From a virus (taxonomy: Duplodnaviria > Heunggongvirae > Uroviricota > Caudoviricetes), in IMG/VR virus record IMGVR_UViG_3300028734_000016: DNA of 64,000 bases; one strand, 5' to 3'. The position numbers and the translations under genes are program-made. A model generated the notes under the pieces. The model had not been told where the DNA came from. It saw nothing but the letters and a program-made list of their open reading frames with translations, and searched no databases. Positions within the stretch are counted from its first letter, which is position 1; the number at the start of each line of letters is the position of its first letter. Positions 6,977 to 63,820 of this stretch are shown here, one piece after another.

Positions 6977-7046
6977 CTTGAGAGGGATTCGAACCCTCAC
7001 TGAAACGCATTTGAAACGCCGTCCTCTGCCGTTGGGATACCAAGCC
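6975..7046 (-). tRNA. tRNA, anticodon loop UUCAAAU (CAA, leucine-type), short variable loop, A73
   Basis: hand fold: 7-bp acceptor (G1·U72), perfect T-arm GAGGG-TTCGAAT-CCCTC, anticodon stem rich in G·U; identity uncertain. Confidence 0.5.
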
Positions 7047-7047
7047 A

Positions 7048-8145: not shown

Positions 8146-8249
8146 ATTATTTTTTATTTTATATATAAAAAATTCTATGACAAAAAGAATAAAAATTGAA
8201 CATATTTTTAAATAAATTGTATCATAATGATTAATCATTGAATATATTG

Positions 8250-8337
8250 TACTCCTGGTCGGACTTGAACCGACACGCCTACTATTGTTCAGCACATGTT
8301 TCTAAAACATGGATGTCTACCATTCCATCACAGGAGC
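8250..8337 (-). tRNA. tRNA-Leu (anticodon TAG), type II with long variable arm, A73
   Basis: hand fold: acceptor GCTCCTG/CAGGAGT, D-loop GGAATGGTAGAC, anticodon stem CATGT/ACATG loop TTTAGAA, T-arm GTCGG-TTCAAGT-CCGAC. Confidence 0.85.
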
Positions 8338-8346
8338 GATTTTTTG

Positions 8347-8433
8347 TACCGATGACGGGACTTGAACCCGTATAAGCATATAGCTTGCAAAATTTTAAGT
8401 TTTGAATGTCTACCAAGATTCCATCACATCGGC
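8347..8433 (-). tRNA. tRNA-Leu (anticodon TAA), type II, A73
   Basis: anticodon stem CAAAA/TTTTG loop CTTAAAA; ~16-nt variable arm; T-arm ACGGG-TTCAAGT-CCCGT. Confidence 0.85.
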
Positions 8434-8441
8434 ATATTTTG

Positions 8442-8521
8442 TACTCCTAGAGGTATTCGAAACCTCATCCAAATGGACATCATCTTAAGTGATGCGTGTA
8501 TACCAATTCCACCATAGGAGC
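8442..8521 (-). tRNA. tRNA, anticodon TAA (leucine-type) with only ~11-nt variable region, A73
   Basis: acceptor GCTCCTA/TAGGAGT, Leu-like D-loop GGAATTGGTATAC, anticodon stem CATCA/TGATG loop CTTAAGA, T-arm GAGGT-TTCGAAT-ACCTC. Confidence 0.6.
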
Positions 8522-14635: not shown

Positions 14636-15391
14636 TTATTTTACTTGTTTAAATACATATTTCATATAATATTCATCAAAACCATCCATCATAGTTGTAA
14701 TTGAATTGGATTTATTATCAGCTAATCCAATGACATTATCTATCAAACCATAATTCAAAGCTTCATCAGAATTTAACCACATATCTCTTTGACAAAAATC
14801 ATGAATTTCTTCAAATGACTTGTCAGTATTAAGAGCAAGAATTTTGAATAGTAAAAAATTGTATTTTTCAGTTTCCATTTGACTAATACGAGTATCATCT
14901 ACTTTGCCACTAGTTCCTGCTGCAACGTGATGTAGCATAACTGTTGAATTAATTAATGATGAACGCTTACCTTTTGCTCCAGATGATAGAAGTACACTAC
15001 CCATTGAAGCGCACATTCCTAAATTGACTGTGGCTACATTAGGTTTAATATAGTTCATAACATCTATGATTCCTAACCCATGAGTCACACTACCGCCTCC
15101 TGTATTAATTTGCATTGTAATGTCCTTTTGAGGATCAGAATCTTCTAAATATAATAATTGTGCTTGAATAATATCAGACATTGTATCATCAACGTCACCA
15201 GACACCCATAAAATTCTATCCATCATAAGTCTATCAAACACAGATAGTTGAGTTACATTCAATTGTCGTTCTTCTAAAACATGAGGAGATAAGCCATAAT
15301 TTTCAGCTTGATATTTTGTTGCATCATCTACTAATGTAGAACTCATTCCTAAATGTTTGGTAGCAAACTTTTTAAATTCATTTTTGTGCAT
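14636..15391 (-). CDS. clpP: ATP-dependent Clp protease proteolytic subunit ClpP
   Basis: GMCASMGS (Ser), MLHHVAAG (His), ILWVSGDVDD; full-length canonical ClpP. Confidence 0.9.
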   Translation of the reverse strand: MHKNEFKKFATKHLGMSSTLVDDATKYQAENYGLSPHVLEERQLNVTQLSVFDRLMMDRILWVSGDVDDTMSDIIQAQLLYLEDSDPQKDITMQINTGGGSVTHGLGIIDVMNYIKPNVATVNLGMCASMGSVLLSSGAKGKRSSLINSTVMLHHVAAGTSGKVDDTRISQMETEKYNFLLFKILALNTDKSFEEIHDFCQRDMWLNSDEALNYGLIDNVIGLADNKSNSITTMMDGFDEYYMKYVFKQVK

Positions 15392-18334: not shown

Positions 18335-20218
18335 TTAATTGTTCAACATTTTTTCTAAATCTTCAACACTTAACAATTTCACTCCAATCTCTTCTGCTTT
18401 AACTGCCTTGCTTGATAAAGAATTTTTATCTTTCATAACTAAGTATGTTAAATTTTTAGATACACCAGATGCAACTTTACCTGATTTTGAAATTATGATT
18501 TCTTCTAAATCTTTTCGTCGTATTCCAGTAAAACAAAAAGACACATTTTCTAATTCGTTTGTTACCATAATAATATTTTCTTTTTTTGTTTCAATTGTTA
18601 TTTGAGGTTTATCTTGTAACCATTCATAAAATGTATCATAAGCATCAAGATATGCATGTGCAGATTTATCTGAGAATCCTTTAATTGATAGAATTTCGTC
18701 AAGTGATGGTTTACCTTCAAAATGCATTAGTAATTCAATTTTTTTACTACCAAGATTCACAAAGAAATTTGAAGAATGCATTAATTTAGATAATTTGACA
18801 TTTTTTATAGAAGATTGAATACTATTATATATAATTTCAGCCCTTCTCTCACCAAATCTATCTAATGATTCTAATTCTGATTGTGTTAATTCCAATATTT
18901 GTTTAACAGTCTTATATCCAGAGTTATATAACTGATTGATAATACCTTCTGATACATTATCAGCTTCAAGTATTTCAAAGAAAGATATCAATTTCTTAAT
19001 TTCTTGTTCTTCAGTTCCTTCAACCATTAATTCTACTTCATTTTCATTCCAGAAAACTTTTGAACTACCAAAAGTTGGCATTTCAAATCCAGTTGCAGAA
19101 ACAATTTGAACAATCTTTGGTATTACCAAACCTGACCGAATTATTTTTACAATACTTCCAACTCCTAAATCATGTTTTTTTACAAATTTATAGTTATTTA
19201 AGGTGACACGTGATACTGTAGCACCATCAATATTCACTGGAATTATTCGCCCAACTGGCTTAAGTAATCCGTTTTTCGAAACTTCTTTTACAATTTCAAG
19301 TATGGTTGTTTCTGCTGATTCTGCCCATTCAGGATTCTTATATGCTCTTGCGTATGATGGATTATTGTTAGTTTCACGACCAAGTTTTTTTCTGATGTCT
19401 TTGTCATTTATATCAAAAACAAGTCCATCAATATCATAATCTTTACCCCATTCAATAAAAATATCATTTAGCTCATCAAAATTCAAATCTTTTGCTTTGA
19501 ATATTTTGTATGGTACATTAGATAAATTAGTACTGATGAAATCTAATTGTTCAGATTTATCTTGAGTGAAATCTTCGCTTGCATAACCATAACGAATATG
19601 TTTAGCAAATTTCAAATCTTCGGATGGAGTATCAGAATTTTTAAGTCCAGCAATCATATTACGAGCATTCTTAAATGGCTTACCATTATCTCTATAAAAT
19701 ACTCTACTATTAAAAACTTGTTTTGGAAAAATCATTTCTCCAATAGTAAACAAATTAATATTTTTACTATCATCATTCAACTTTTTGTAGTGCAAATGCA
19801 TAGTTTCGCCAGTGATGCCATTTCCTCTTGACCAAGCAAGTTGTTTATATTCATCTTTAAGAATTGACATACCATCATATTTTGATGTACAAACCAATTC
19901 TGTTTCTAATGGTAACCCTTTATTTTTCAACCATTTGTGAATTTCTACAATTGTGTGATATTTATCCAATGAATACATTGGAAATTTTAAATTTTCTTTT
20001 CTGTCTGGATTGACATCTTCGCTATCTTCAATAACGCCAGATTCAAATATTTCATTATCTGGGTCTAATTTTTGAAATGTAGAAATTACTTTATCATATT
20101 CAGGATCACTGATTTCAGGTTCTCCGTCACGATATTTCTTATTTAGTTTTTTGACTTCAACTGCTGCAGACTCAAACATACCGTATTCTAATAATCGATA
20201 AATTTCTGATAATTCCAT
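18335..20218 (-). CDS. ligA: NAD-dependent DNA ligase
   Basis: N-terminal YRDGEPEISDPEYDKV, adenylation motif SKYDGMS, C-terminal BRCT-like region. Confidence 0.9.
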   Translation of the reverse strand: MELSEIYRLLEYGMFESAAVEVKKLNKKYRDGEPEISDPEYDKVISTFQKLDPDNEIFESGVIEDSEDVNPDRKENLKFPMYSLDKYHTIVEIHKWLKNKGLPLETELVCTSKYDGMSILKDEYKQLAWSRGNGITGETMHLHYKKLNDDSKNINLFTIGEMIFPKQVFNSRVFYRDNGKPFKNARNMIAGLKNSDTPSEDLKFAKHIRYGYASEDFTQDKSEQLDFISTNLSNVPYKIFKAKDLNFDELNDIFIEWGKDYDIDGLVFDINDKDIRKKLGRETNNNPSYARAYKNPEWAESAETTILEIVKEVSKNGLLKPVGRIIPVNIDGATVSRVTLNNYKFVKKHDLGVGSIVKIIRSGLVIPKIVQIVSATGFEMPTFGSSKVFWNENEVELMVEGTEEQEIKKLISFFEILEADNVSEGIINQLYNSGYKTVKQILELTQSELESLDRFGERRAEIIYNSIQSSIKNVKLSKLMHSSNFFVNLGSKKIELLMHFEGKPSLDEILSIKGFSDKSAHAYLDAYDTFYEWLQDKPQITIETKKENIIMVTNELENVSFCFTGIRRKDLEEIIISKSGKVASGVSKNLTYLVMKDKNSLSSKAVKAEEIGVKLLSVEDLEKMLNN

Positions 20219-26450: not shown

Positions 26451-27128
26451 TTATAATTTTAATTTTTTGACTCCTTTTGTTGCTGTTTCTTTAATATGAG
26501 TGAAATTTCGAATATCAATACCAACATCAGAATCAGATGGATCAATATAATATGTGTGTGTTCTGAAATTTACTTTATATAACAAATTTGCTGCAGGATA
26601 AACTTGTAATGATGTTCCAATTACAATAAGAATATCTGCTTCTTTTGTTAATTTTTCAGCTTTACCCATATTTGGTACATCTTCACCGAACCAAACAATA
26701 TGTGGTCGTAATGTATCACCATTTTCATCTACACTATCTGTTTGAATATCAAAGTCTTTTGGCCAATCATAAACAGTATTATTGTTAAATGCTCTCATCT
26801 TTGTTAATTGTCCATGGAGATGTAACACATTTGTACTGCCTGCTCTCTCATGTAAATCGTCCACATTTTGCGTCACTATCTGAACATCATATTTCTGTTC
26901 TAATTCAGCAAGAAAGTAATGTGCAGAATTAGGTTCTACTGTATCTAATTGTTTATGCCTTTCATTGTAAAATTTTAATACCAATTTTCTATCTTTCCTC
27001 CAACCATCAATCGTTGCGACGTCTTTAACATCATATTGCTCCCAAAGTCCGTCAGAATCCCTGAAAGTTTGAATTCCGCTTTCTGCACTTATTCCAGCAC
27101 CAGTAAATACTACTATTTTCTTTTTCAT
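26451..27128 (-). CDS. cobB: Sir2-family NAD-dependent deacylase (CobB-like sirtuin)
   Basis: GAGISAESGIQTFRDSDGLW, QNVDDLHERAG, LHGQ; 225 aa. Confidence 0.85.
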   Translation of the reverse strand: MKKKIVVFTGAGISAESGIQTFRDSDGLWEQYDVKDVATIDGWRKDRKLVLKFYNERHKQLDTVEPNSAHYFLAELEQKYDVQIVTQNVDDLHERAGSTNVLHLHGQLTKMRAFNNNTVYDWPKDFDIQTDSVDENGDTLRPHIVWFGEDVPNMGKAEKLTKEADILIVIGTSLQVYPAANLLYKVNFRTHTYYIDPSDSDVGIDIRNFTHIKETATKGVKKLKL

Positions 27129-43953: not shown

Positions 43954-45228
43954 TTATATATTAAAATTCGGAATTGTAATTGTTAAATCTTTAGTTGAAT
44001 CACCAAATGCATTAATGGCTTTTATTTTTATATTTGATATTCCAGGATAATTAGGTGTACCACTTATTATATTACCCAGAAGATTTAATCCGCTAGGCAA
44101 TTTACCTATTATTTTATATGTTGAATTTATATCTGTTGATTCTATTGTGTAATTAAAAGGAAAATAATAACTACCTAAAACAGAACCAGAACTAGTAATA
44201 ATAGGAATGTAGCCAACACCAATAGATAACTGTTTAGAATCAACCCCTGTTATTCCAGATGCTATTAGATTCACAATCGTACTACCTGTTTCAGAACAAA
44301 TTCCATTAATTACTCCAGTTAAATTATTTATACTTAATCCTGATGGTAACGGAGTTGCATCATATGAACTAGGATAACCATTTGATGATATTTGATATGT
44401 AATAGTTGTTCCAAATTTGCTATTAATTACTAAATTTGTATTAGTTATTTTAACATAATCTATGACAGTTAAAACTAAATTTTTTGATGCTGATCCGTAA
44501 TAATTTATTGCACTATATCTAAAATTATATACTCCACTTACAGATGATGTTACTCCACTTATTCTGTTCAAATTTATTCCTACTGTTCCAGTATAATTAC
44601 CTGGAGATATGAGTTCATATTTTATAGGTGAAGTTCCAGTTGCAGTTATAAGATAATCAAATTTACTATTTGTTTCTACACTTAAATCGAAATATTCATT
44701 TGTGATGATAGGATGTATTATTGTTCTAGTTGGAATATTAGAATTTCCTGATACTCCATCTTGTAGTGTAGTGGTAAGTGTATTTAATGTATTTATAGAA
44801 TTCGTGATATCATTGGTATAACCAGTTACATTTATACCAGTTGTGAATACGTTATTATATTTACTACCTGAGCCAGTGATAGTTGATCCGGAATTTGTAA
44901 TCGGGTTAGAACTCAAATTAGAACTATTACCTGTATCAATTTTAATTTGGTTTATTAAGTCATAATTTATATCACCATATTTTTTTAATGGCAAAGAATC
45001 TATATACTCAATATTAGGATTTTTTATTAATTCACTATAGAATGAATCTGTAATTTCAGATGCTATTATCATATTATCATATGAATATAAAATAGTACCT
45101 CCTTGTAAATTTATAATACTCTCAATTGATGAATTATAACTTAATGTTGTACCAGATGACATATTTAATACATTAAGTAAATCAACTTTACCATTTAATA
45201 TTGTTGTAGTTGTAGTTGTAGTTATCAT
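43954..45228 (-). CDS. Ig-like (He_PIG-type) repeat surface/adhesin- or fibre-like protein
   Basis: three LP-x-GL-x(5)-TG-x-I-x-G repeats; S/T/N-rich. Confidence 0.7.
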   Translation of the reverse strand: MITTTTTTTILNGKVDLLNVLNMSSGTTLSYNSSIESIINLQGGTILYSYDNMIIASEITDSFYSELIKNPNIEYIDSLPLKKYGDINYDLINQIKIDTGNSSNLSSNPITNSGSTITGSGSKYNNVFTTGINVTGYTNDITNSINTLNTLTTTLQDGVSGNSNIPTRTIIHPIITNEYFDLSVETNSKFDYLITATGTSPIKYELISPGNYTGTVGINLNRISGVTSSVSGVYNFRYSAINYYGSASKNLVLTVIDYVKITNTNLVINSKFGTTITYQISSNGYPSSYDATPLPSGLSINNLTGVINGICSETGSTIVNLIASGITGVDSKQLSIGVGYIPIITSSGSVLGSYYFPFNYTIESTDINSTYKIIGKLPSGLNLLGNIISGTPNYPGISNIKIKAINAFGDSTKDLTITIPNFNI

Positions 45229-50153: not shown

Positions 50154-52682
50154 TTAAACTTTAGTATTTTCTGTCAATATGTTACCATTCTTAATTTCGT
50201 TATTTGAAATTTTAAAGATTTTAACTGAAGAACTTTCTTTATCATATATCAATGATAATGTATCACCAACTGATATTTCTTGATCAATAATAGCATCAGT
50301 AAGTTTATCTTCAATATTACTCTGAATGACTCTCTTTAATGGTCTTGCACCATAATTTTCATCATAACCATTTTCAAATAAATAATCTTTAAGTGATTGA
50401 GATATAATTACATCATATCCTTTTTCTTTAAGATTTGAAATTAAAGATTTACATTCAACATCAACAATGCTACAAATGTTTTCTTTACTCAAAGAATTGA
50501 AATTGATAACTTCATCTACACGATTTAAAAATTCAGGACTAAAAACTTTTTCTAATTCTTTTTTAAGAACTGAATTTTTAGAGTCTTGATTATTTTTATT
50601 AAGTCCAAATCCAATACCAGTACCAAAATCTTTCAATTTTCGTGAACCAGCATTTGTTGTCATAACAATAATAGTATTTTTAAAATCGACTTTACGTCCA
50701 TTACTATCTGTCAATACACCATCATCCAACACTTGAAGAAGGATATTTTGAACATCAGGGTGAGCTTTTTCAATTTCATCAAGAAGAATAATAGAATAAG
50801 GCTTACGTCTAACTGCTTCAGTTAATTTACCACCATCTTCATATCCAACATATCCAGGAGGTGCTCCTACTAATCTAGATACTGAGAATTTTTCCATAAA
50901 TTCACTCATATCAATTCTAATCATAGCATCTTCAGAACCAAATAACTCCTTTGCCATAATTTTAGCAAGATATGTTTTACCTACTCCAGTAGGTCCTGAG
51001 AAAATAAATGTGCCAACTGGTTTATCATGACTATTTATACCAACTCTTGATCTCTTAACTGATTGAACTATTTTGTCAACTGCTTCATCTTGTCCAATAA
51101 CAATAGTTTTAACTTTATTAGCCATATATTTAAGCTTATTGTTTTCATCAACAGAAACATTATCTACAGGTATTTTTGTTATAAGAGCAACAACTTCAGC
51201 TATATCCTGTTGTGTTACCAAAGGACGATTATCAGAATGTGATTGACTCCATGTTTCTTTTTCAGTTTCAAGTTCAGATTTCCATTGTTTTTCATTATCT
51301 CTATGTTCAGCAGCAATTTCATATTTCTGATTTGAAATACAATCAAGTTTTTCCACAATAGATATTTTTATTTTTTTGCTGAGTTCAACAATTTTTACAG
51401 GAATAGCACTTGTACCATTAACGTGAACCATAGCGCCAGCCTCATCAAGAACATCAATTGCCTTATCTGGAAAGAATTTTTCTGATATATATTTACCAGA
51501 CAAATTAACACAAGCTTCTAATGCATCATCAGTATATGTAACTTTGTGATGATCTTCATATTGTTTTTTTATATTTTTCAGAATTTCTAAAGTTTCTGAC
51601 TTACTGGTTGCCTCAACAACAACTTTCTGAAATCTACGTTCTAATGCAGCATCTTTTTCTACATACTTACGATATTCTTCAAGTGTAGTAGCACCAATAC
51701 ATCTAAATGTACCTCTTGCTAATCCTGGTTTCAACATATTGGAAGCATCGAGTGAACCTTGGGCTGAGCCAGCACCTATAATAGTATGAATTTCATCAAT
51801 AAAAAGAATAATGTCAGGATTTTCTTCCATTTCTTTGACAATACCTCTTAATCTTTGTTCAAATTCACCACGATATTTAGTTCCTGCTACTAAAGAACCC
51901 ATATCAAGAGTAATAATTTTCTTATCCTGTAAATTTTCAGGAACAAGTCCATCTACGATTAACTGAGCCAATCCTTCTACAATAGCAGATTTTCCTACTC
52001 CAGGTTCTCCTACCAAAACAGGATTGTTTTTCTTACGTCTTGATAAAATCTGTGAGATTCTTTTAATTTCATCTGCACGTCCTACTACTGGATCAAGTTT
52101 ACCTTCTTTTGCAAGATTGGTCAGATTTGTACCAAATTGATCAATCAATTTAGTTTTTGATTTGCTCTTTCCTTTTACTTCTTGTTCTTGTTCTTCGTCC
52201 ATGTTACTATTTTCTAATTCATCATTAATATTAAGTTCATCTTCTTCATTTTTTAATTTGTTTTTTAAACTTCTTAAAATTTCAGGTGATTTATTAAATA
52301 AATCTGAAACAAGGTTATTATTATTATCCAATATTGCATAAAAAACATGCTCAATACAAACTTCATCTGAGTCCATTGATTTGGCAAAAACCACAGATTC
52401 TTTTAGAATTTTTTCAGTTTCTAATTCTAATGGAATAGAAGCATTCTTTCTAAGAGAATTCAAACCATTCTGTTTTTGTAAATCTTTAGACCAATCACGA
52501 ATTGTTGATTTGATAGCATTAATATTGAGATTTAAATCTCTCATTATATTAGATGCTTCAGAATATTCCTCATCTATCATTGCTAAGAATAAATGCTCAG
52601 GCCTGATTGTGTTAGATTGAATAATAATTGCAATTCCCTTACTTAGTTTAATAACTTCTTCTACTTCTTTCGAGTAATTCAT
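50154..52682 (-). CDS. clpC: ClpA/ClpC-type AAA+ unfoldase (two Clp_N repeats, D1 and D2 ATPase modules, short middle region, IGF-type ClpP-docking loop)
   Basis: [15 protein letters not shown] + ILFIDEIH (D1); [15 protein letters not shown] + [14 protein letters not shown] (D2); GTGIGFGL loop. Confidence 0.9.
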
Positions 52683-52966: not shown

Positions 52967-53260
52967 TTATTGTTCTATTGTGAGAGATAATCCTTTCTCT
53001 TCTAATAATTTTTTGTAAGGCTCCAATGATTCTTTTGAGCCAGTTTTAATAATATCTTTACCTATAAGATGAACATTATAAGCTGATGCTTGACCTCTTT
53101 CAAATGAAAATTTTAAATATGCCATTAGACAAGTTATTACCCATTCGAATGAATTCACATCATCATTCCACAATATTAATTTATACTCTTCTTCAGTATT
53201 ACTAGAAATACCATTTTCTGATAAAATGTCTTCCAATGATTTTGTTTTTATTTTCTCCAT
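52967..53260 (-). CDS. clpS: ClpS-like N-degron adaptor
   Basis: YKLILWNDDVNSFEWVITCLMAYLKFSFERGQASAYNVHLIGKDII matches the ClpS core. Confidence 0.75.
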   Translation of the reverse strand: MEKIKTKSLEDILSENGISSNTEEEYKLILWNDDVNSFEWVITCLMAYLKFSFERGQASAYNVHLIGKDIIKTGSKESLEPYKKLLEEKGLSLTIEQ

Positions 53261-54010: not shown

Positions 54011-55651
54011 ATGAGTTTAATTTTAAGACAACAAAAAGGAGAAAGATTAACTATAACCGAAATGGACGGTAATTTTTCATATTTAGAATCTCTATCTGGC
54101 ATTTCTCACACATCAGGAACAAATGGAAGTTCAGGAACAAATGGAAGTTCAGGAACAGATGGAACATCAGGAACAGATGGAACATCAGGTACAAATGGAA
54201 GTTCAGGAACAAATGGAAGTTCAGGAACAAATGGATTAAGTGGAGATAAATATACTACATTTTCGAATAATACATTAGAAATATCAACAGGAGGTACAAT
54301 ATCATTTTTTGTTGAGCCTAATTTATCATTATCTACAGGACAAGATATTATAATAACACATGACTCATCAAATTTAATGATAAATTATATATTATCATAT
54401 AATAAAATAACAGGTGAAATATTTTCAAATATTACTTCATCTATTGGTAGCGGAACATATAATTTTTGGAATGTATCATTAAATGGTGCTCCTGGTCCTT
54501 CAGGAATAGATGGAACATCAGGAATAGATGGAACATCAGGAATTTCAGGAACAGATGGAACATCGGGAAGTTCAGGAACAGATGGAACATCAGGAATAGA
54601 TGGAACATCAGGAATAGATGGAACATCAGGAATAGATGGAACATCAGGAATAGATGGAACATCAGGAACGAATGGAACATCAGGAAGTTCAGGAACAGAT
54701 GGAACATCAGGAACGAATGGAACGTCAGGAACAAATGGAACGTCAGGAACAAATGGAACATCAGGAACAAATGGAACATCAGGAAGTTCAGGCACAAATG
54801 GAACATCAGGAACGAATGGAACGTCAGGAACAAATGGAACGTCAGGAACAAATGGAACATCAGGAAGTTCAGGCACAAATGGAACATCAGGAACGAATGG
54901 AACGTCAGGAAGTTCAGGAACCAATGGAACATCAGGAAGTTCAGGAACCAATGGAACATCAGGAAGTTCAGGAACAGTATCATTAAATGGTACAACGAAT
55001 TATGGACTACTTACATTAAATGTATCATCTCCAAATGTAAATGTTGAAAGTGGATTAACATATCATAATTCATTATTAAATTTAAATGGTAATTTAATAT
55101 TACCAAAGTTGTCAGGAACAGGTATAATGATAGACAATACAACACCGACATTTGGATATAAAGATTTAATCGGTCAGATAATACCAAGGGTTGGTGGATC
55201 TACTGCTCCTTCATTATCACCGTTAAGAGGAACTAATATACTTAATTATACATTTCAAGTTAATGATAAGATAGATAATATTACATATCATATGCCACAT
55301 GATTATTTACCAAACTCTGATATATATTTACACACACATTGGAGTCATAATGGTACAGCAATTTCAGGAACATTTGCATTAAACTATTATGTAAATTACA
55401 GTAAAGGTTATAACCAATCAGGACAAACATTCAATTCTGAATTGACTATACCACAAACAATTTCTGTAACAGGAACAACAGATCGTCCAAGATGGGGACA
55501 TTTTATAGATGAAATCAAATTAAGTAATATAGGTGGAGATTCAACTCATTTAAATACATCATTATTAGAAATTGATGGAATTATTGAAATTGCATTAAAT
55601 GTAAATAGTATACCTACTATAACAGGGGTACAACAACTAATCCATTTATAA
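54011..55651 (+). CDS. collagen-like repeat protein (two G-T-S-G-x-x-G blocks) with a non-repetitive C-terminal domain; fibre/fibril candidate
   Basis: 546-aa ORF; preceded by (AAAAAACATT)x3. Confidence 0.8.
   Translation: MSLILRQQKGERLTITEMDGNFSYLESLSGISHTSGTNGSSGTNGSSGTDGTSGTDGTSGTNGSSGTNGSSGTNGLSGDKYTTFSNNTLEISTGGTISFFVEPNLSLSTGQDIIITHDSSNLMINYILSYNKITGEIFSNITSSIGSGTYNFWNVSLNGAPGPSGIDGTSGIDGTSGISGTDGTSGSSGTDGTSGIDGTSGIDGTSGIDGTSGIDGTSGTNGTSGSSGTDGTSGTNGTSGTNGTSGTNGTSGTNGTSGSSGTNGTSGTNGTSGTNGTSGTNGTSGSSGTNGTSGTNGTSGSSGTNGTSGSSGTNGTSGSSGTVSLNGTTNYGLLTLNVSSPNVNVESGLTYHNSLLNLNGNLILPKLSGTGIMIDNTTPTFGYKDLIGQIIPRVGGSTAPSLSPLRGTNILNYTFQVNDKIDNITYHMPHDYLPNSDIYLHTHWSHNGTAISGTFALNYYVNYSKGYNQSGQTFNSELTIPQTISVTGTTDRPRWGHFIDEIKLSNIGGDSTHLNTSLLEIDGIIEIALNVNSIPTITGVQQLIHL
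54470..54970 (+). repeat. coding 9-nt G-x-x collagen-like repeat block (second block; first at ~54100-54240)
   Basis: antisense ORFs 54385-55047 are repeat artefacts. Confidence 0.8.
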
Positions 55652-56076: not shown

Positions 56077-56478
56077 ATGAATTTAGAATATAAATTATGT
56101 AGAATATTTCACAATGATAAATATACAATAGGTAAACTATATGAAAACGGTATATATATTTGTGACACTATTGAAGATGTTGTTAGAAATATTAAAATAA
56201 AAGACAAAACTGCAATTCCAATTGGAAAATATAAAGTAATTGTAAACATGTCAAATAGATTCAAAAGATTACTACCTTTATTAATAGATGTACCAGGATT
56301 TGATGGTATTCGTATTCATAATGGAATAAATGAAACATCTACATCAGGTTGTGTAATTGTAGGAGAAAATAAAGTTAAAGGAGAAGTTACAAATTCTAGA
56401 TTTTGGATGAATAAAGTATGTGACAATATGATAGCAGCACAAAAAAAAGGAATCAAAATCACAATTGAAATAGTTTAA
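56077..56478 (+). CDS. hypothetical protein with an H...S-x-G-C-V motif (IRIHNGINETSTSGCVIV) reminiscent of L,D-transpeptidase catalytic sites
   Basis: motif only; weak. Confidence 0.45.
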   Translation: MNLEYKLCRIFHNDKYTIGKLYENGIYICDTIEDVVRNIKIKDKTAIPIGKYKVIVNMSNRFKRLLPLLIDVPGFDGIRIHNGINETSTSGCVIVGENKVKGEVTNSRFWMNKVCDNMIAAQKKGIKITIEIV

Positions 56479-56480
56479 TA

Positions 56481-56514
56481 AAAAAAGAGCAGATAAAAAT
56501 CTACTCTTTTTTTG
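56481..56514. terminator. hairpin AAAAGAGCAGAT...ATCTACTCTTTT + T-run (paralog of 36061-36095)
   Basis: read directly. Confidence 0.6.
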
Positions 56515-56517
56515 TTT

Positions 56518-59500
56518 TTAATAAACTAATTCTAAGTGAGAAACTAATTCTTCGTCTTTATCAACTTCAATTGATGCATCAAAATTTATACTATGCACCT
56601 GTTCAATAATTACAATTTTATTTACTTTATTTTTCAACTCATCAATAAATTCTAAAAATTGCTGAACAGATTTTGTTTTTTTACCATCAATTAATTTACC
56701 CATAATTTCATCCAATACAATAAACGTAGATTTTGATTTGACATTTATTTGTCGTAATGCTATCTTCAATGCAAGAGCACAAAATGTTCTTTCTTTTCCA
56801 GAACTTTCAATTGCATTTTGACTGGAATCTAGCCTATCATCTGCACTAAGCCTTAAATTTAAATTATCATCAAAAAATAATGTAAAATTAACATTTATTA
56901 ATAATTCATTCAATTCTTTATTAATTAAATGAATAGACTTTTTCAATAAAAAAGTAGGTAATCCATCACGACTAATACATTTTTGATACTCCTTTAATAA
57001 CTCATCTTTTTTCTTTTGTTTTAAATATTTTTTTATCTTAGTTGAAATTATAAAAATATCATTTTCTTTGAGTATAATATTTTTTTCCATTTCTATATTT
57101 ATTTGTGATAAATTTTTTATTTGTTCTTTAACGACTTTAATATTATTATCCACATCATCTATTGATAATTGAATAATTTTATTTTCATCTATTTTAACTT
57201 TATATTCTTGATATTTTTCTATTTCTAATTTTAGTTCTTTTATTTTAAAATTAAAATTTTCGATTGATAAAATAATATTATCTCTATTTGACATTTTTCT
57301 GTTTCTTAACTCAAAATTATCTTTCTTAGTTTCCTCAATTGAAATATCATCATCTATACCTTCAACATTAAAATTTTTCAATTCAGACTCAATATTTTTT
57401 ATTACAATTGATGTATCTAATTTGCCTTTTTCTATGTTTTTTATTAGTTCTTTCCCTTTCTCAATATTTTCATTTAATGTTTCAGATTCATCAAATATGT
57501 TATTCTCAATTTTTTCTATTAATTTATTTAAATCTAAATTGTCTTGAGTCAACTTCTTACTGCTACCAATTTCTTTCAATTTAGATAATATATCATCAGG
57601 GTATTCTCCTTGAATTAACCTTTTTTTCATGTCTTCCAAATTAAGAATATTTGTATTACATTCAATAGATTCATTTTTTAAATCTTTATACTTTAATATA
57701 CAATCTTTAATTATCAAAGAATTTGGTTCTTTTTTAATTTCAAGACTTTTAATTTTATCTTCTAAATGAGCTAAGTGTTCTGAATATTTTGGATCATTTT
57801 TATCATAATCTCTACCACAGCTAGGACAAGATTTTGAATTTTTGAATGTTTCTATTTCTTTATCTAATTCCTCATTTGAATTTTTAGCGTTAACTCCATC
57901 TTTTTGTAATAATTTTATATTAGATGATAATTCTTTTAAATTTAATTCTAATTCTTGAATTTCTGATGTTATTTTTTTTATTTCATCCTTTATGATATTA
58001 GATTTATTATTTTTAATAACTTCAATTTGTAAATCATTTGCATTTATTTTTGATGATATTTTTCTAATTTCAGATTGTTTTAATTCATCAATTTTAATAT
58101 TAACTTTATCTATTTTATTATCAGATTCTAATAATGAAGTTTTCAAATTTGAAATTTCATCTTTTCGTTCAGAAATTTTCAAGTTCGTTTGCTTCAATTT
58201 AATTTTATATTCATCAAGTTTAGATGAATCGAATTCAGTAGGTAATTTATCAATGTCTCTATCTAAAATTGTGCTTTGAATTTTAGATTCTTCAATTTTA
58301 GATTCATAATTGTTGATGGTATTCAAATTTAAATCTTCATTAAAAGTTAACATTGATAAATCAATATTATTTAATTTTTTATTTAAATTATCTCTATCTG
58401 TATTATAATCAGATAATTCTTTTTCATGCTTCTCAATATCAGAATTATTAGTATCAATAATATCTTTAATATCAATAATTTCAGTATTCAATTCTTTCAC
58501 ACGAGATTCAGAATCTTGAATATTTACTATTAATTTTTCTTCTACTAATTCTTTTTTATATTCTTTAAATTCATTCAATTTAATTTCAAAAATATCATAA
58601 CCAGCATCTCTGATGATGTTATCCATAAATACACTTCTATTTTCTGATAATAAATCATTTAAATTATCAGCATTAGTGAATGACAATCTAATAAAATCTT
58701 TCAAATCTCCTAAAATAGAGTCCAATTCTTTTTGAGTCTTAGCTTTAATTTCATCTGTTAATTTATTTTCTTCACAAATATTCTCGCTTTTATAAAAATC
58801 CAATGATGTAGGACAGCTTGTTAATGCCGTGTGATTCTTATTCCAAACTCTTTCTGTCTTTCTCTGAATAACGAATTTATTACCATTTGAATTAATAATT
58901 GCACCACCATTAACATAATCTAAATCTCTTTTGTTATTTATATATCTTGAATCTCCAAATTTTTCAGGACTTAATGTTGTCGTAGTCTTACCATAAAGAA
59001 TATAAGTAAGTGCATCTAAAATAGTTGTTTTACCTTCCTGATTTTCTCCATGAATTTGTACAATTCCATTAATATCAGCCCAATCTATAACATTATCATC
59101 TCCATAAGATTTAAAATTACTAAACCAGAATTTATCAATACTCCATTCAGTATTTTTTAAGCATTCTACCAATTGAACTCTACTATTTATTATATCATCA
59201 ATTTTAAGAATAGATTCAATATCATCTTTTTTGTATTTTTGCTCTTCTAAATATTCATTAAATATTTCTTTCTGTGTTTCAGTATCAGTCAAATCAATTG
59301 ATTCTGATAGCATTTTTGATGATAATATATCTGTGTATAAATAAACTTTTTCAAAAATAACTTTAGTTGTGCTAAATTTATTTTTAATATAATCTCTTAT
59401 TTTCTTTTCATTAACAGTATTTATAATTGATGAATATTCTTTCCAATGAACTTTAATTTCAGTATCTGTTCCAATTTTATCAGCAGACAAATTTAAATTG

Positions 59501-60273
59501 TCATAATCTGATGATTCATCAATATAAAGATTTATGAAAGTGTGTTCATTGTCAATATCATATTCAGTGACATCAAAATCTGATGGTGATTTTATATCCC
59601 ATAATAAAAAACCATGATTTTCAATTGTTTCACCATATGATTGTTGTATAGTTGAGCCACAATATGCAGCAGATTTATCATTTCTTAAATACTGACGCTT
59701 GTGGATATCACCTATTAGCACAAAATCATTATTATTAAAATAATTCATATTTTTGTACTTGTTTGCATCATTAAAAACTTTACCAGTATTTGATGTTACA
59801 TTTAAAACTGGGTCATGAAATAACCCAATATATATTTTACCATCATATTTTTTAATATTTTTCCATGGATCGTTGTCTTTATCTGAGTGTTCATAAACAA
59901 CCCAAACAAAATTGTTATCTTGCTTATCATCATAAAATCCAGTTTTATCATAATAAGTAACATTTGGATTATTCATTAGTTTAACTACAGTTTCTATGCT
60001 GTCGATTCTATTTAAATTTTTCTTACGAATATCATGATTACCACGAACTATTATAACTTTAGCAATTTTTGATAATTCATTTAAGAAATTTCCAGCTATA
60101 ATTTCAGCTTCATTTGAAATTTCAATATAACTTTCAAATAAATCACCAACAATAACAATTCTATCTGGTGTAATTTTGCGTAATTTTTTTATTATTTTTT
60201 GAAAAATATCATTATATTCTTCATGTCTTTCAAGGTTTCTAATGTGAACATCAGCTAAGTGAGCAATTTTCAT
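56518..60273 (-). CDS. fused SbcD/Mre11-type nuclease + SbcC/Rad50-type ATPase, single 1251-aa polypeptide
   Basis: N-terminal phosphoesterase motifs HLADVH, VGDLF, RGNHD, IGDIHKRQ; Walker A GENQEGKTT; long coiled coil with CPSCGR zinc hook; C-terminal SSGKERTF...IVLDEIMGKLID and VHSINF. Confidence 0.85.
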   Translation of the reverse strand: MKIAHLADVHIRNLERHEEYNDIFQKIIKKLRKITPDRIVIVGDLFESYIEISNEAEIIAGNFLNELSKIAKVIIVRGNHDIRKKNLNRIDSIETVVKLMNNPNVTYYDKTGFYDDKQDNNFVWVVYEHSDKDNDPWKNIKKYDGKIYIGLFHDPVLNVTSNTGKVFNDANKYKNMNYFNNNDFVLIGDIHKRQYLRNDKSAAYCGSTIQQSYGETIENHGFLLWDIKSPSDFDVTEYDIDNEHTFINLYIDESSDYDNLNLSADKIGTDTEIKVHWKEYSSIINTVNEKKIRDYIKNKFSTTKVIFEKVYLYTDILSSKMLSESIDLTDTETQKEIFNEYLEEQKYKKDDIESILKIDDIINSRVQLVECLKNTEWSIDKFWFSNFKSYGDDNVIDWADINGIVQIHGENQEGKTTILDALTYILYGKTTTTLSPEKFGDSRYINNKRDLDYVNGGAIINSNGNKFVIQRKTERVWNKNHTALTSCPTSLDFYKSENICEENKLTDEIKAKTQKELDSILGDLKDFIRLSFTNADNLNDLLSENRSVFMDNIIRDAGYDIFEIKLNEFKEYKKELVEEKLIVNIQDSESRVKELNTEIIDIKDIIDTNNSDIEKHEKELSDYNTDRDNLNKKLNNIDLSMLTFNEDLNLNTINNYESKIEESKIQSTILDRDIDKLPTEFDSSKLDEYKIKLKQTNLKISERKDEISNLKTSLLESDNKIDKVNIKIDELKQSEIRKISSKINANDLQIEVIKNNKSNIIKDEIKKITSEIQELELNLKELSSNIKLLQKDGVNAKNSNEELDKEIETFKNSKSCPSCGRDYDKNDPKYSEHLAHLEDKIKSLEIKKEPNSLIIKDCILKYKDLKNESIECNTNILNLEDMKKRLIQGEYPDDILSKLKEIGSSKKLTQDNLDLNKLIEKIENNIFDESETLNENIEKGKELIKNIEKGKLDTSIVIKNIESELKNFNVEGIDDDISIEETKKDNFELRNRKMSNRDNIILSIENFNFKIKELKLEIEKYQEYKVKIDENKIIQLSIDDVDNNIKVVKEQIKNLSQINIEMEKNIILKENDIFIISTKIKKYLKQKKKDELLKEYQKCISRDGLPTFLLKKSIHLINKELNELLINVNFTLFFDDNLNLRLSADDRLDSSQNAIESSGKERTFCALALKIALRQINVKSKSTFIVLDEIMGKLIDGKKTKSVQQFLEFIDELKNKVNKIVIIEQVHSINFDASIEVDKDEELVSHLELVY

Positions 60274-60442
60274 ATATTTATCTAATATTATTTTATTTTA
60301 TTTTTAAGTTTATATTTTTACAAATATAATGAATTTATTTCATAAATCAAAATATTTATAGTTTAACTTTATTTTATATGATCAAAAACATTAATTGTTT
60401 TATAATATATAATAAATTATTAAAAAATAAACAATAAAAACT

Positions 60443-61621
60443 ATGAAATGGACATTAGAAATATGTCAAAAAGCAGCATTAAAATATGAATATAGAAGTG
60501 ATTTTAAAAAATTAGATAATTTAGCATATAATGCTTGTGTAAAAAATAAATATTTAAATATTGTTTGTTCACATATGAAATATAAAATTAATACTCCAGG
60601 ACATTGGACACACAATAAATGTCAAGAAGCAGCATTAAATTATAATTCTATATCAGATTTTCAAAAAAATGAAGCAACTGCATATAATAAGTCATTAAAA
60701 AATAATTGGCTAAATAGTATTTGTTCTCATATGAATTTAAGTCATAAACCTAATAATTACTGGACAATAGAAAAATGTCAAGAAGTAGCATTAAAATATT
60801 TAACCAGAACTGATTTTAGAAAAAATGATGCTAGTGCATATAGAATATCTATTTCAAAAAAATGGATAGAAAAAATTTGTAATCATATGACTTATGTTAA
60901 TAATTATTGGAATTATGATAAATGCAAAGAAGAAGCATTAAAGTGTAATAGTAGAAATGATTTTCAAAAAAAATATAGAGGTGCTTATAATTTTTCAAAT
61001 GTAAATAATATATCTAATGATATCTGTTCACATATGATAAAAATTGGTAGTAAAGAATTTAGATGTATTTATGCTTTTGAATTTGATGATAATTGTGCAT
61101 ATATTGGATTGACATATAATATAAAAATTAGAGAGCAGGAGCATATTAAAAAAGGTCCAATTTACAAACATTTACAAAAAGCAAGCAATAAATATAAATT
61201 GATACAATTAACTGACTATATTAATAAATCAGAAGCACAGAAATTGGAAGAATATTATATGAATGAATACAAAAATAATAATTGGAAATTATTAAATACT
61301 AACAAAAAAAGTACATTAGGAGGATCTGCTAAATTTTGGACATATGAAAAATGTAAATACGAGGCATCAAAATATATTTATAAAGATGATTTTCTAAAAA
61401 ACAATAGTAGTGCAGCAGCATCTGCAATTAAAAATGAATGGTATAAAGATATATGCTCTCATATGATAGCAAAAAAAAGAAAAAATTCATGGCCAGAAGA
61501 TGATATTATTTTTTTAATTGAAAATTATCATATAGGAATAAAATGTTGTGCTAAAAAATTAAATAGGTCTTATTATTCTGTTAAATCTCAATATCAAGTA
61601 TTAAAAAACAAATTCAAATAA
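60443..61621 (+). CDS. GIY-YIG endonuclease with 5 tandem ~48-aa W-T-x-EKCQEAALKY...ICSHM repeats
   Basis: GIY-YIG core IYAFEFDDNCAYIGLTYNIKIREQEH; repeats read from the translation (4 before, 1 after the catalytic core). Confidence 0.75.
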   Translation: MKWTLEICQKAALKYEYRSDFKKLDNLAYNACVKNKYLNIVCSHMKYKINTPGHWTHNKCQEAALNYNSISDFQKNEATAYNKSLKNNWLNSICSHMNLSHKPNNYWTIEKCQEVALKYLTRTDFRKNDASAYRISISKKWIEKICNHMTYVNNYWNYDKCKEEALKCNSRNDFQKKYRGAYNFSNVNNISNDICSHMIKIGSKEFRCIYAFEFDDNCAYIGLTYNIKIREQEHIKKGPIYKHLQKASNKYKLIQLTDYINKSEAQKLEEYYMNEYKNNNWKLLNTNKKSTLGGSAKFWTYEKCKYEASKYIYKDDFLKNNSSAAASAIKNEWYKDICSHMIAKKRKNSWPEDDIIFLIENYHIGIKCCAKKLNRSYYSVKSQYQVLKNKFK

Positions 61622-61635
61622 TTATATATATCAGC

Positions 61636-62055
61636 ATGATAACAGAATTCAAATTATTCGAGAACTCAGATGATAAAGTCACATTGGTATTGGATGATAT
61701 TGTAGATTACTTTGATAGTCATGAAGATTCAATACGAAATTTCATTTTCAAATTATTTAATTTCAACAATAACATTGTTGAATTTAATTGTAATAAATGT
61801 ACAGATGATATAAATGGTGTTACAAATTTTATACATTCAAATAAACATCATAAAGGAATTATAAACGGTAGAAGTTATGGATTTAATTATGATCTTAAAC
61901 ATATATACTTAACATTGAGATTGAAAAGAATAAAATTTAGTCATATAGTAGACACAAATTCTCAGATGACAATTTATGGAAATATTCCTGGTGATATAAA
62001 AAAAATAATAAATGATATTAATATAAAAAGACAAGCAAATAAATTTAACATATGA
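61636..62055 (+). CDS. MIxEFKLFEN...CNKC...NKFNI family protein
   Basis: paralog of 62470-62907. Confidence 0.6.
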   Translation: MITEFKLFENSDDKVTLVLDDIVDYFDSHEDSIRNFIFKLFNFNNNIVEFNCNKCTDDINGVTNFIHSNKHHKGIINGRSYGFNYDLKHIYLTLRLKRIKFSHIVDTNSQMTIYGNIPGDIKKIINDINIKRQANKFNI

Positions 62056-62468
62056 TACTAACTACTTCAGCAATTTTAAACATTTTAATAATACTTTTTT
62101 TATTATTAATATCTGGTATATCTAAATCTATAACTGATATATCATCTTCTCCTAATTTATTTTACAAGTCAAGATTATATTTAAAATATAAATTAAATCC
62201 AAAATTTTGGGAACAAGGATTGGGGTCTCTCAATAAATATAAAAATGCCAATCCATTAAATGGAGAAAAATTCATAGGAAGTACTACTATTTTTGTTGTG
62301 TTTACTGATGCATGGCATTTATTTTGGTTTATATCTGAAATAACTATGATTCTTGCATCTGTTATAATCACATTGAATACATCTATTTGGTTTGTTATGT
62401 TGGCATTTTCAATTAAACTGATATTTTTTGAAATTGTTTTTAATTATTTAAGGAAAAAAATTAATTAA
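62052..62468 (+). CDS. multi-pass membrane protein
   Basis: 138 aa, 3-4 hydrophobic segments; ATATGA overlap. Confidence 0.5.
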   Translation: MILTTSAILNILIILFLLLISGISKSITDISSSPNLFYKSRLYLKYKLNPKFWEQGLGSLNKYKNANPLNGEKFIGSTTIFVVFTDAWHLFWFISEITMILASVIITLNTSIWFVMLAFSIKLIFFEIVFNYLRKKIN

Positions 62469-62469
62469 T

Positions 62470-62907
62470 ATGATTATAAATTTCAAAATATTTGAAAATA
62501 CAGAAACCGAAACAACATTCATACTAAATGATTTGTTAAATTACTATTCTGGTAGTTACACGAAAATTAAAAAATTTCTTAGTAATTTGTTGATAGTTGA
62601 TACATTAGTTGAATTTAATTGTAAGAATTGTTATGATAAAGAAAAAAATATTTTTATAGATGTACCTCAAATAGTTAAAGGTAGAATCAACACCATAACA
62701 GAGTGTACGACTGGATATCAAGGCACTTTACAACACAAGAAAAGAATATTTGTTCTATTATCATTAATATTAACTACAAATGATAATTATATTTACCATG
62801 TTGACAATAAATCATCATTTACTATTTATGGTAATATTACAGAAAAACAGAAAAAAGTAATCAATGAAATGAATTTAACAAGAATCTCAAATAAATTCAA
62901 CTTATAA
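62470..62907 (+). CDS. MIINFKIFEN...CKNC...NKFNL family protein
   Basis: paralog of 61636-62055. Confidence 0.6.
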   Translation: MIINFKIFENTETETTFILNDLLNYYSGSYTKIKKFLSNLLIVDTLVEFNCKNCYDKEKNIFIDVPQIVKGRINTITECTTGYQGTLQHKKRIFVLLSLILTTNDNYIYHVDNKSSFTIYGNITEKQKKVINEMNLTRISNKFNL

Positions 62908-62952
62908 TAATATAAAAGATGATAATTATTAGTAAAGGTTATATTTTTTTTG

Positions 62953-62960
62953 TATCTTTG
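62953..62960 (+). promoter_or_regulatory. plus-strand TATCTTTG box ~30 nt upstream of the ATG at 62990
   Basis: TTTTTTGTATCTTTGCG. Confidence 0.45.
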
Positions 62961-62989
62961 CGAAATATAATTATAAATAAAAATAATAT

Positions 62990-63421
62990 ATGAACTCAAA
63001 AATAAATTCCTCTATAAAAATTAGTTCTGATACTGAAAAATTTCTAAATAATTATGAAGAAATATATAAAAAGAAATATGAAGAAAATATAACTGATAGT
63101 TTCACATATAGAGGTATACCATATTCTTGTTATGATGAATTCGCACTATTAATATTTATGTATAAATATCCATATATTTGGAAAACAGATAATAAAAAAA
63201 CAAATAAAAAAATACAAAGAGAAGTAAAAAAATATACATTAGATTCTGTGATAACGAAAATAGAAGAAACACCAAAATTATATTATGAAATAGAAGAATA
63301 TACAAATAAAACATCACTGGTTTGGAAAAGTTCATATTTCATTTTTTCATACTATTTATTTTTAAATGCTGTAAATTATACTCCATCATGGATAATATCA
63401 ACAAGAAAATTTAATATATAA
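62990..63421 (+). CDS. hypothetical protein (...RKFNI tail)
   Basis: 143-aa ORF. Confidence 0.5.
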   Translation: MNSKINSSIKISSDTEKFLNNYEEIYKKKYEENITDSFTYRGIPYSCYDEFALLIFMYKYPYIWKTDNKKTNKKIQREVKKYTLDSVITKIEETPKLYYEIEEYTNKTSLVWKSSYFIFSYYLFLNAVNYTPSWIISTRKFNI

Positions 63422-63530
63422 TTATGATAATTGAAAAATTTAATATATTTAAAAGAAAAAAGAAAATATATAATTATGATAATTGAAAAATTTAATATAT
63501 TTAAAAGAAAAAAAGAAAAAGAAAAATATT
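63421..63530 (+). repeat. tandem direct duplication (~52 nt x2) of a gene start AATTATGATAATTGAAAAATTTAATATATTTAAAAGAAAAAAG
   Basis: two copies read directly; first copy gives a 20-codon truncated ORF. Confidence 0.8.
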
Positions 63531-63820
63531 TCTTAGTTTTATTCAAACCAGATGAAGGAGATTATTTTATATTATATAAAATAATTCTTGGAATTGAAGA
63601 ATTTGTTCTTACTGACAAAATTGATTCAAGTAATATAGATATCCTTAAAAAGAAAAATACCAACATTGAAAGTTTTACTACAATTGAATTAGCCAACGAT
63701 AGATTAGATATTGTAATACACAAATACAATGATCACCAATGGGCTAATAGAAATAATTGGATGATAAAAACTTTTGATGAGTTGAATTTTTTATTCACTA
63801 CAAATAAATTTAATATATAA
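63476..63820 (+). CDS. MIIEKFNIFK...NKFNI family protein (start placed at the ATG of the second repeat copy)
   Basis: tracked ORF 63431-63820 begins at a non-ATG codon inside the duplicated leader. Confidence 0.55.
   Translation: MIIEKFNIFKRKKEKEKYFLVLFKPDEGDYFILYKIILGIEEFVLTDKIDSSNIDILKKKNTNIESFTTIELANDRLDIVIHKYNDHQWANRNNWMIKTFDELNFLFTTNKFNI

Follow-up and report, generated by a model that had tools for sequence, protein, structure and literature searches.

Natural fusions of the Mre11 nuclease with the Rad50 ATPase were described in 2011, with Mimivirus R555 as the prototype (Yoshida, Claverie & Ogata; PMC3175470). Beside R555, twelve further fusions were reported, including those of Bacillus phage 0305phi8-36, of plasmids and of some eukaryotes; the fusion proteins were not monophyletic, and abundant fusion homologs in metagenomes were proposed to come from phages (PMC3175470). 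Here we analysed a 64,000-nucleotide stretch of viral DNA, IMG/VR record IMGVR_UViG_3300028734_000016 (the window), in which one complete open reading frame (ORF) on the minus strand (56518..60273; ATG start, 1251 amino acids plus stop) encodes an Mre11/SbcD nuclease and a Rad50/SbcC ATPase as a single chain. We regard the product, with considerable confidence, as a single-chain Mre11–Rad50 (SbcDC) DNA-end-processing enzyme of a huge phage of the Mahaphage clade, the host of which would probably belong to the Bacteroidota.

Compared by its published description, R555 has the same order of parts as the window protein: an N-terminal Mre11-like nuclease, a region of the length of a capping domain plus a helix–loop–helix (HLH), a short linker, and Rad50 with a long coiled coil. 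The viral setting is also the same, as is a His-to-Asp change at the first position of nuclease motif V (PMC3175470). The two proteins differ in size and source, R555 having 1351 residues and belonging to a giant virus of eukaryotes, whereas the 1251-residue window protein is assigned below to a huge phage; they differ also at the third position of motif II, which is His in R555 and Glu (E47) in the window protein. The same two activities, with the same presumed role, are found in T4 gp47/gp46 and in SbcD/SbcC of Staphylococcus and Listeria SPO1-like phages, but the T4 gp46/gp47 type consists of two genes instead of a single ORF. Similarity of the window protein to the T4-type and SPO1-like pairs was detectable by tblastn for the nuclease only (residues 1–226), and the coiled coil of T4 gp46 is much shorter (PMC3175470). 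Both folds of the window protein match those of E. coli SbcCD and of the T. maritima and M. jannaschii Mre11–Rad50 complexes (6s6v, 7yzo, 3qg5, 3tho, 3aux), including the predicted HLH, ABC head, coiled coil and hook; in these complexes, however, the subunits are separate, the Q-loop Gln, D-loop Asp and H-loop His are canonical, and identity to the window protein is 10–20%.

Architecture and integrity of the fusion

A reading of this DNA made from sequence alone had claimed a covalent Mre11/SbcD–Rad50/SbcC fusion of 1251 residues, and the ORF at 56518–60273 contains these domains in the order claimed. The coordinates that follow are all on the minus strand. The phosphoesterase (nuclease) core occupies residues 1–230 (59584..60273), as delimited by a Pfam Metallophos match (E = 2e-11), invariant residues, Foldseek matches and an AlphaFold2 model with predicted local distance difference test (pLDDT) values above 90. 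It is followed by a capping-like, beta-rich domain with approximate boundaries (residues ~231–312; 59338..59583), for which AlphaFold2 places strands within 233–312 and a helix at 286–300, and which can be superposed on 7dog and 3thn, both structures of a nuclease with its capping domain, with a TM-score of 0.66–0.71. A flexible hinge (residues 313–330; 59284..59337), with pLDDT of ~60 in the window model and below 50 at 314–320 in the model of homolog P0055, leads into the HLH (residues 331–365; 59179..59283), which was delimited by AlphaFold2 and Foldseek and is gap-free in 91 homologs. An 11-residue connector (residues 366–376; 59146..59178), seen in the AlphaFold2 model and likewise gap-free in the family, joins the HLH to the first Rad50 strand and is the actual fusion joint. 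Its length lies within the 9–12 residues that were calculated to bridge the ~28 Å between the Mre11 C terminus and the Rad50 N terminus in the T. maritima complex (PMC3175470).

Beyond the joint, profiles and alignments define the N-lobe of the Rad50/SbcC ATPase (residues 377–580; 58534..59145), which contains the Walker A motif and a diverged Q-loop. The antiparallel coiled coil of about 500 residues starts with an outgoing arm (residues ~581–815, approximate; 57829..58533), modelled in P0055 as continuous helices at 586–783; this arm shows lower conservation and is almost without gaps in the alignment of 91 homologs. The zinc-hook CxxC motif (C816-P-S-C819; 57817..57828), marked by invariant Cys residues and by profile matches to 1l8d and 6zff, is placed by the model where the coiled coil reverses, and the returning arm (residues ~820–1095, approximate; 56989..57816) corresponds to helices 802–1036 in P0055 numbering. 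The C-lobe of the ATPase (residues ~1096–1251; 56521..56988) carries the signature motif, Walker B, the H-loop position Q1225 and H1227.

Profile searches agreed with this anatomy. In addition to Metallophos, SMC_N/AAA_29 matched residues 379–440 below the Pfam threshold, an NCBIfam scan matched SbcD and SMC fragments, and the PHROG collection yielded SbcD-like (8.5e-26) and SbcC-like (1.1e-14) matches together with phrog_35725, a single-chain phage family of 1376 positions that spans both halves (E = 9e-42). For comparison with the PDB we used a profile built from 29 family members, which retrieved Rad50 (3aux, 9e-26) and E. coli SbcC (6s6v_C, 1e-20) with the ATPase, SbcD (7dog, 7e-17) and T. 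maritima Mre11 (3qg5_C, 1e-15) with the nuclease, and isolated Rad50 zinc-hook fragments (6zff, 5e-8; 1l8d, 1e-7). By these scores, the domain matches are far beyond chance.

Structure prediction, which had been proposed as a check, gave a complete Mre11/SbcD joined by the connector to Rad50/SbcC. Two AlphaFold2 models were made, one of window residues 1–600 (pLDDT 84.4) and one of the full-length, 1183-residue homolog P0055 (pLDDT 83.7), which is 58–61% identical to the window protein; the two models agree. In Foldseek, the former matched 7dog, 3thn, 1ii7 and 4lty (E values between 1e-11 and 1e-14; TM-scores, normalised to the target, 0.62–0.71). Its N-terminal ~410 residues aligned with complete Mre11/SbcD chains including their Rad50-binding helices (target-normalised TM-score ~0.6), namely 3qg5_D (409 columns, 366-residue target), 6s6v_A (415 columns, 386 residues), 6s6v_B and 3tho_B, and the rest of the chain aligned with Rad50 (7zr1, 3auy). 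The two predicted helices (331–344 and 349–365) stand at the place of the Mre11 HLH in these monomer models, which do not address docking to the coiled coil, and the HLH is thereby predicted to be the Rad50-binding domain of Mre11. In the full-length model of P0055, the antiparallel coiled coil runs without interruption, reverses direction at the CxxC loop and leads back to the C-lobe.

The continuity of the reading frame was examined at several levels. Across its 3756 nucleotides the gene showed 0 mismatches between the window and two independent assemblies from different samples (L001 and L002), and an identical 1251-residue protein was found on 10 contigs, four of them 0.2–1 Mb long. A homolog search returned more than 100 homologs with 38–85% identity, each a single ORF of ~1220–1250 residues. 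Residues 276–400, which include the fusion joint, had zero gaps in the 91-homolog alignment and were conserved at the level of the catalytic cores, so that the junction at ~59146–59400 was both gap-free across homologs and nucleotide-identical between independent assemblies. When all six frames of the window were searched with the family hidden Markov model, a single SbcCD-like frame was found, the 1251-residue ORF. Together, these comparisons indicate that the fusion is real and under selection.

Active-site residues and proposed function

Residue conservation was assessed in the 91-sequence family alignment and in a second set of 29 sequences that included cultured jumbo phages. The nuclease motifs named in the sequence-only reading were located in the translation at residues 8–10 (DVH), 43–46 (GDLF), 78–81 (GNHD) and 188–191 (GDIH). 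The seven di-metal ligands of Mre11 are, in PfMre11, D8, H10, D49, N84, H173, H206 and H208. Their counterparts in the window protein are D8, H10, D44, N79, H153, D189 and H191, all of them invariant or nearly so. The catalytic His, H80, lies in a G78-N79-H80 stretch that is invariant in 91/91 sequences, and D81 is present in 87 of the 91. Motif V reads G-D-x-H in 89/91, with Asp replacing His as the first ligand; this Asp is still a metal ligand. Invariant in the second set (29/29) were D8, G43-D44, G78-N79-H80, H153, H191 and H220 of the nuclease and G414-K415, C816, C819, S1158-G1159 and D1188-E1189 of the ATPase and hook.

The Rad50-type motifs that had been claimed for the second half could all be read from the translation. 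Walker A is GENQEGKTT (residues 409–417; nucleotides 59023–59049), with G409 and G414-K415-T416; Walker B is FIVLDE (residues 1184–1189), with an invariant D1188-E1189 pair. In the signature, SSGKE (residues 1157–1161), S1158-G1159-(K/M)-E1161 aligns to 'SGGE' of M. jannaschii Rad50; the Ser, first Gly and Glu are conserved in 89–91 of 91 sequences, and Lys or Met takes the place of the second Gly. Both Cys residues of the hook, CPSCGR (residues 816–821), are invariant in 91/91 and 29/29 sequences, and the pair is predicted to bind zinc as a hook.

Three further ATPase motifs have diverged, as far as can be told from assignments that rest on remote alignments in which the register of a single motif may slip by a residue or two. 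The Q-loop Gln is absent: 'TNAD' (residues 533–536; 58666–58677) aligns to 'KQGE' and 'SQGQ', the position being Asn in 68, Thr in 22 and Gln in 0 of the 91 sequences, among which no conserved Gln was found nearby. The D-loop Asp is likewise absent, the aligned position 1195 (56689–56691) being I, V or L and residue 1196 variable; K1193, near this position, is conserved in 90/91. At the H-loop position 1225 (56599–56601, in 'IIEQVH'), the H-loop claimed from sequence holds for the family, where His is present in 87/91, but not strictly for the window protein, which shares a Gln with its 85%-identical homolog P0002 only and keeps a second His, H1227, two residues past Q1225. The diverged Q- and D-loops, which are family-wide, and the H-loop His-to-Gln change, which belongs to the lineage of the window protein, are minor novelties.

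The mechanism proposed here follows the one established for Mre11–Rad50, for SbcCD of E. coli and for gp46/gp47 of T4. A homodimer would give the usual M2R2 assembly, which three contacts would hold together: the interface of the two nucleases, the Rad50 heads, which would engage in an ATP-dependent manner, and Zn2+ coordinated jointly by the two hooks. The HLH would dock at the base of the coiled coil. Binding of ATP would clamp the complex on DNA ends or hairpins, and hydrolysis would move the nuclease dimer to the cutting position for Mn2+-dependent exo- and endonucleolytic cuts. In the phage, the ends resected in this way would feed recombination-dependent replication and the repair of its ~0.7-Mb genome, as with T4 gp46/47. 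Nearly all jumbo phages have SbcC and SbcD among their core recombination genes (PMC7824862), and because the two are core recombination machinery, end resection for replication or break repair is the most likely role. The fixed 1:1 stoichiometry proposed in the sequence-only reading follows directly from the single-chain architecture; the fusion would guarantee it together with co-expression, and would make the system one transferable gene.

Several observations weigh against assigning the protein this role. No measured activity, oligomeric state or metal content was found in the literature searched for any natural fusion, and the search found no biochemical or structural work on natural fusions beyond PMC3175470. 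Scores against the curated SbcD and SMC models stayed under the respective cut-offs, TIGR00619 with 41.8 bits against 77.65 and PRK10966 with 21.9 bits against 450; by these scores the window protein is a divergent relative and no equivalog of bacterial SbcD. The available models are of monomers and are silent on whether the HLH docks to its own or to the partner chain. The window covers 64 kb of a genome of ~711 kb, and a separate sbcC/sbcD pair may lie elsewhere. Finally, the head departs from canonical Rad50, with Asn or Thr in the Q-loop, no conserved Asp in the D-loop and, here, Gln in the H-loop, and because of these departures the ATP cycle may be altered or slow.

This last point can be carried further, to an enzyme with very slow hydrolysis that would act as a long-lived DNA clamp or tether, its nuclease gated unlike that of canonical SbcCD. 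In favour are the Q-loop Asn or Thr in 90/91 sequences, the I, V or L at the D-loop position, and Q1225, confined to the window protein and P0002. In ABC ATPases generally, the H-loop His supports hydrolysis and Gln is found at degenerate, low-turnover sites, which Q1225 recalls. However, the Walker A Lys, the Walker B Asp-Glu pair and the signature Ser-Gly are invariant, favouring a working ATPase, H1227 could compensate from two residues away, the register of single motifs in remote alignments can slip by a residue or two, and the nuclease site is fully conserved. We consider such a change of cycle quite unlikely. Slightly less doubtful, although still improbable, is the broader proposal that the single-chain family of huge phages is a mechanistically distinct branch of Mre11–Rad50 with a rewired ATP cycle, which may also have served as the phage reservoir that R555 and the scattered fusions of eukaryotes and plasmids came from. 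The family would in that case represent a minimal M2R2 machine that occurs naturally and needs only one gene, and its cis-tethered HLH and changed motifs would alter the way in which hydrolysis of ATP controls the nuclease.

The single-chain family and its genome of origin

The sequence-only reading had called a covalent fusion unusual, an expectation that does not hold given the fusions described in 2011 (PMC3175470) and given how common they are in large phages, cultured jumbo phages included. A search for other fused SbcCD proteins was made with phmmer, using window residues 1–600, which span the joint, against 1.84 billion representatives of clusters at 50% identity. It returned 3804 matches at E <= 1e-3 and 1060 clusters at E <= 1e-30; among the best 150 matches, ~140 were single alignments crossing the junction, mostly in proteins of 1000–1260 residues. 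Cultured jumbo phages have single-gene homologs in PAU gp288 (1301 residues), PTm1 gp075 (1318 residues) and a protein of Mel-JY01 (1066 residues), PAU being a Sphingomonas phage and PTm1 a Tenacibaculum phage. These homologs are labelled only as 'metallo-phosphoesterase' or 'AAA domain' proteins. PAU gp288 aligned over its full length in BLASTP (E = 1e-34, 23% identity), and the 735-kb uncultured phage LR756501 contains an unannotated 1202-residue ortholog that is colinear end to end, with 38% identity over 1280 columns.

Members of phrog_35725 include PAU gp288, PTm1 gp075 and proteins of pT24 (Tenacibaculum), Chryseobacterium MA9V and Microcystis Mel-JY01, and the LR756501 ORF groups with them. 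All are single genes of 1066–1318 residues whose products can be aligned with the window protein over the whole length and share its catalytic, Walker, signature and CxxC residues. They are 62–77% divergent and differ in coiled-coil length, none is annotated as an Mre11–Rad50 fusion, and PAU, unlike the window protein, keeps His at the first position of motif V. Because of the phmmer census and the homologs in cultured jumbo phages, the architecture can be called common in large phages: jumbo and huge phages of a large family normally have the single-chain form, and the window protein is a new, unannotated member of the published class. As for R555 itself, no Mimivirus entry occurred among 44 proteins from a homolog search seeded with PAU, PTm1 and Mel-JY01, and R555 was not seen among the matches listed in the homolog searches, where the lists are nameless or hold the best 120–150 only.

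Some relatives show features of their own. A 59%-identical homolog (P0043) on a 16-kb contig has the NCBI entry 'metallophosphoesterase [Candidatus Dojkabacteria bacterium]' (MCK9415755.1); the contig is probably phage DNA mis-binned into a bacterial metagenome-assembled genome. In another (P0216; L007:953-5686), the fused gene is split inside the nuclease domain, with a 221-residue ORF carrying motifs I–IV, then a 294-residue homing-endonuclease ORF (phrog_559 match, 1.4e-15; NUMOD3 motif), then a 1046-residue remainder, and about a dozen census matches begin at the same split point (query residues ~195–203). A third (P0079) has 1552 residues, ~300 more than the window protein, and a Pfam intein-splicing domain (PF14890), which points to an intein within the fused gene.

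Every annotated relative of the window protein belongs to a tailed phage whose genome has at least 190 kb. An unrelated 628-residue ORF of the window matches only huge phages, with genomes of 735, 642, 636, 635 and 462 kb, and is 43% identical to its counterpart in the 735-kb phage. These huge phage genomes form the 'Mahaphage' clade, with predicted hosts among the Bacteroidetes (PMC7162821). A protein identical to the fusion also occurs on a 711,471-bp contig, which, if it is one phage genome, would come close to the 735-kb phage record. Judged by these relatives, the source is a huge phage of the Mahaphage clade. Shine–Dalgarno-like motifs are almost absent from the window (2/87 ORFs), and the Bacteroidota −7 box TAnnTTTG shows a modest excess in front of its ORFs (13, against 5.4 +/- 2.3 in shuffles); low Shine–Dalgarno use and −7 box enrichment would be consistent with a Bacteroidetes host. 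The host is probably a member of the Bacteroidota.

An origin in a giant virus of eukaryotes, with the fused protein as a Mimiviridae R555 ortholog, was also considered. The window has a GC content of 0.20–0.30 (about 23%), four tRNA-Leu genes, an NAD-dependent ligase and collagen-like ORFs, as such a virus might, and R555 shares the architecture and the motif V change. Yet the early-promoter motif of the Mimiviridae, AAAATTGA, shows no enrichment (38, against 30 +/- 5), the annotated relatives are tailed phages, the closest being the colinear ortholog in the 735-kb phage, and the 628-residue ORF matches only phages of 462–735 kb. The neighbouring genes, moreover, match phage families (phrog_20046, 4e-60; DUF5675), and a hairpin with a T-run follows the gene. 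The mimivirus origin was rejected on the promoter motif and the phage relatives, and we rate it as very improbable.

Equally remote is a role in defence or counter-defence rather than in replication or recombination, in which the protein would be an SMC/Rad50-like conflict module akin to Lamassu, Wadjet, PbeABCD or RloC and the phosphoesterase its effector. The ATPase head weakly resembles the PADLOC models of PbeC, LmuB and DndD (E = 1e-7 to 1e-5), and SMC chains of Lamassu and Wadjet appear among the distant Foldseek matches. These matches, however, are confined to the generic ABC head or coiled coil, and they are 20–35 orders of magnitude weaker than those to SbcD/SbcC, Mre11/Rad50 and phrog_35725; no full-length match to the LmuB (Lamassu), PbeC or DndD models was found, the partial ones lying in the ATPase head at E 1e-7 or weaker. 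The N-terminal 370 residues make up a complete Mre11/SbcD with capping domain and predicted HLH, and the family is conserved as a core gene across very many large phages, so that with PADLOC matches this weak and generic the defence reading was dropped.

Least probable of all, to the point of being negligible, is an artefact in which a lost stop or a frameshift near 59300–59400 merged adjacent sbcD-like and sbcC-like genes: its only support is the prior that Mre11 and Rad50 usually are separate genes, no indel restoring two ORFs was seen in the identical assemblies or at the gap-free junction, and with the single-ORF homologs and the single-gene homologs in curated complete phage genomes a sequencing or assembly artefact is, for practical purposes, refuted.

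Flanking region and implications

Right after the stop codon of the fused gene, a hairpin lies between an A-run and a T-run (56480..56513, assigned to neither strand; −16.7 kcal/mol, z = −6.7, with 0/200 shuffles as stable). It is likely to be a bidirectional intrinsic terminator, to judge from its sequence and fold, shared with the convergent DUF5675 gene (56077–56478, plus strand); a consensus terminator scan did not call this hairpin, probably as the A and T runs lengthen its stem. Upstream, TATATTTG (60321..60328, minus strand) fits the Bacteroidota-type −7 box TAnnTTTG 48 nucleotides before the ATG and is tentatively proposed as the promoter box of the fused gene. The divergent neighbour (60443–61621) encodes 392 residues with internal repeats and a GIY-YIG domain and gives the phrog_20046 match mentioned above; in Microcystis phage Mel-JY01, too, the fused gene has a GIY-YIG gene in its vicinity, along with a primase-like gene. 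Beyond it, four small tandem ORFs (61636–63820; 129–145 residues), all ending in (N/R)KFN(I/L) and at least two of them alike at the N terminus, form an unannotated paralog family, one member of which was tested and had no Pfam match.

Elsewhere in the window, collagen-like proteins with G-x-x repeats and N termini of the phage tail-fibre type are encoded at 54011–55651 and 145–1956, one of them scoring above the threshold of Pfam T4_gp9_10_N. In the former, the repeat region varies between independent assemblies (95.6% identity with indels), its flanks being 99.6–100% identical. ClpP, a ClpA/ClpB-like two-ring AAA+ ATPase with Clp_N (842 residues) and ClpS are encoded at 14636–15391, 50154–52682 and 52967–53260, and from these matches the phage looks to encode a complete Clp proteolysis set. 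A 'head maturation protease' (phrog_94) had been taken as a tailed-phage hallmark and was withdrawn, Pfam identifying a true ClpP (1.7e-54). A tRNA-Leu cluster (6973–8521) holds four genes with anticodons CAA, TAG, TAA and TAA, and a 415-residue LAGLIDADG/HTH ORF (7048–8295) sits between the first and the other three, abutting or overlapping the tRNA ends. The window also encodes a Sir2-family protein (26451–27128; Pfam 1.9e-46), an NAD-dependent DNA ligase with a BRCT domain (18335–20218; phrog_3869, 9e-102) and an NT5C-type 5′-deoxynucleotidase (3779–4396); the ORF at 43954–45228 had no match in the phage collection.

The single-chain enzyme opens no new category of biology. It does correct an expectation, in that very large phages routinely carry Mre11–Rad50 as one polypeptide, an architecture masked by public labels such as 'metallo-phosphoesterase' and 'AAA domain protein', and its value lies in the improved annotation of a core replication and recombination gene in jumbo and huge phages. 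A natural single-chain M2R2, with fixed stoichiometry and one gene to express, would be convenient for structural and single-molecule studies, and the natural variation of the Q-, D- and H-loops within the family would be useful for probing how ATP gates the nuclease. Still of mild interest are the diverged ATPase motifs, especially Q1225, and the evolutionary tie between the phage family and R555.

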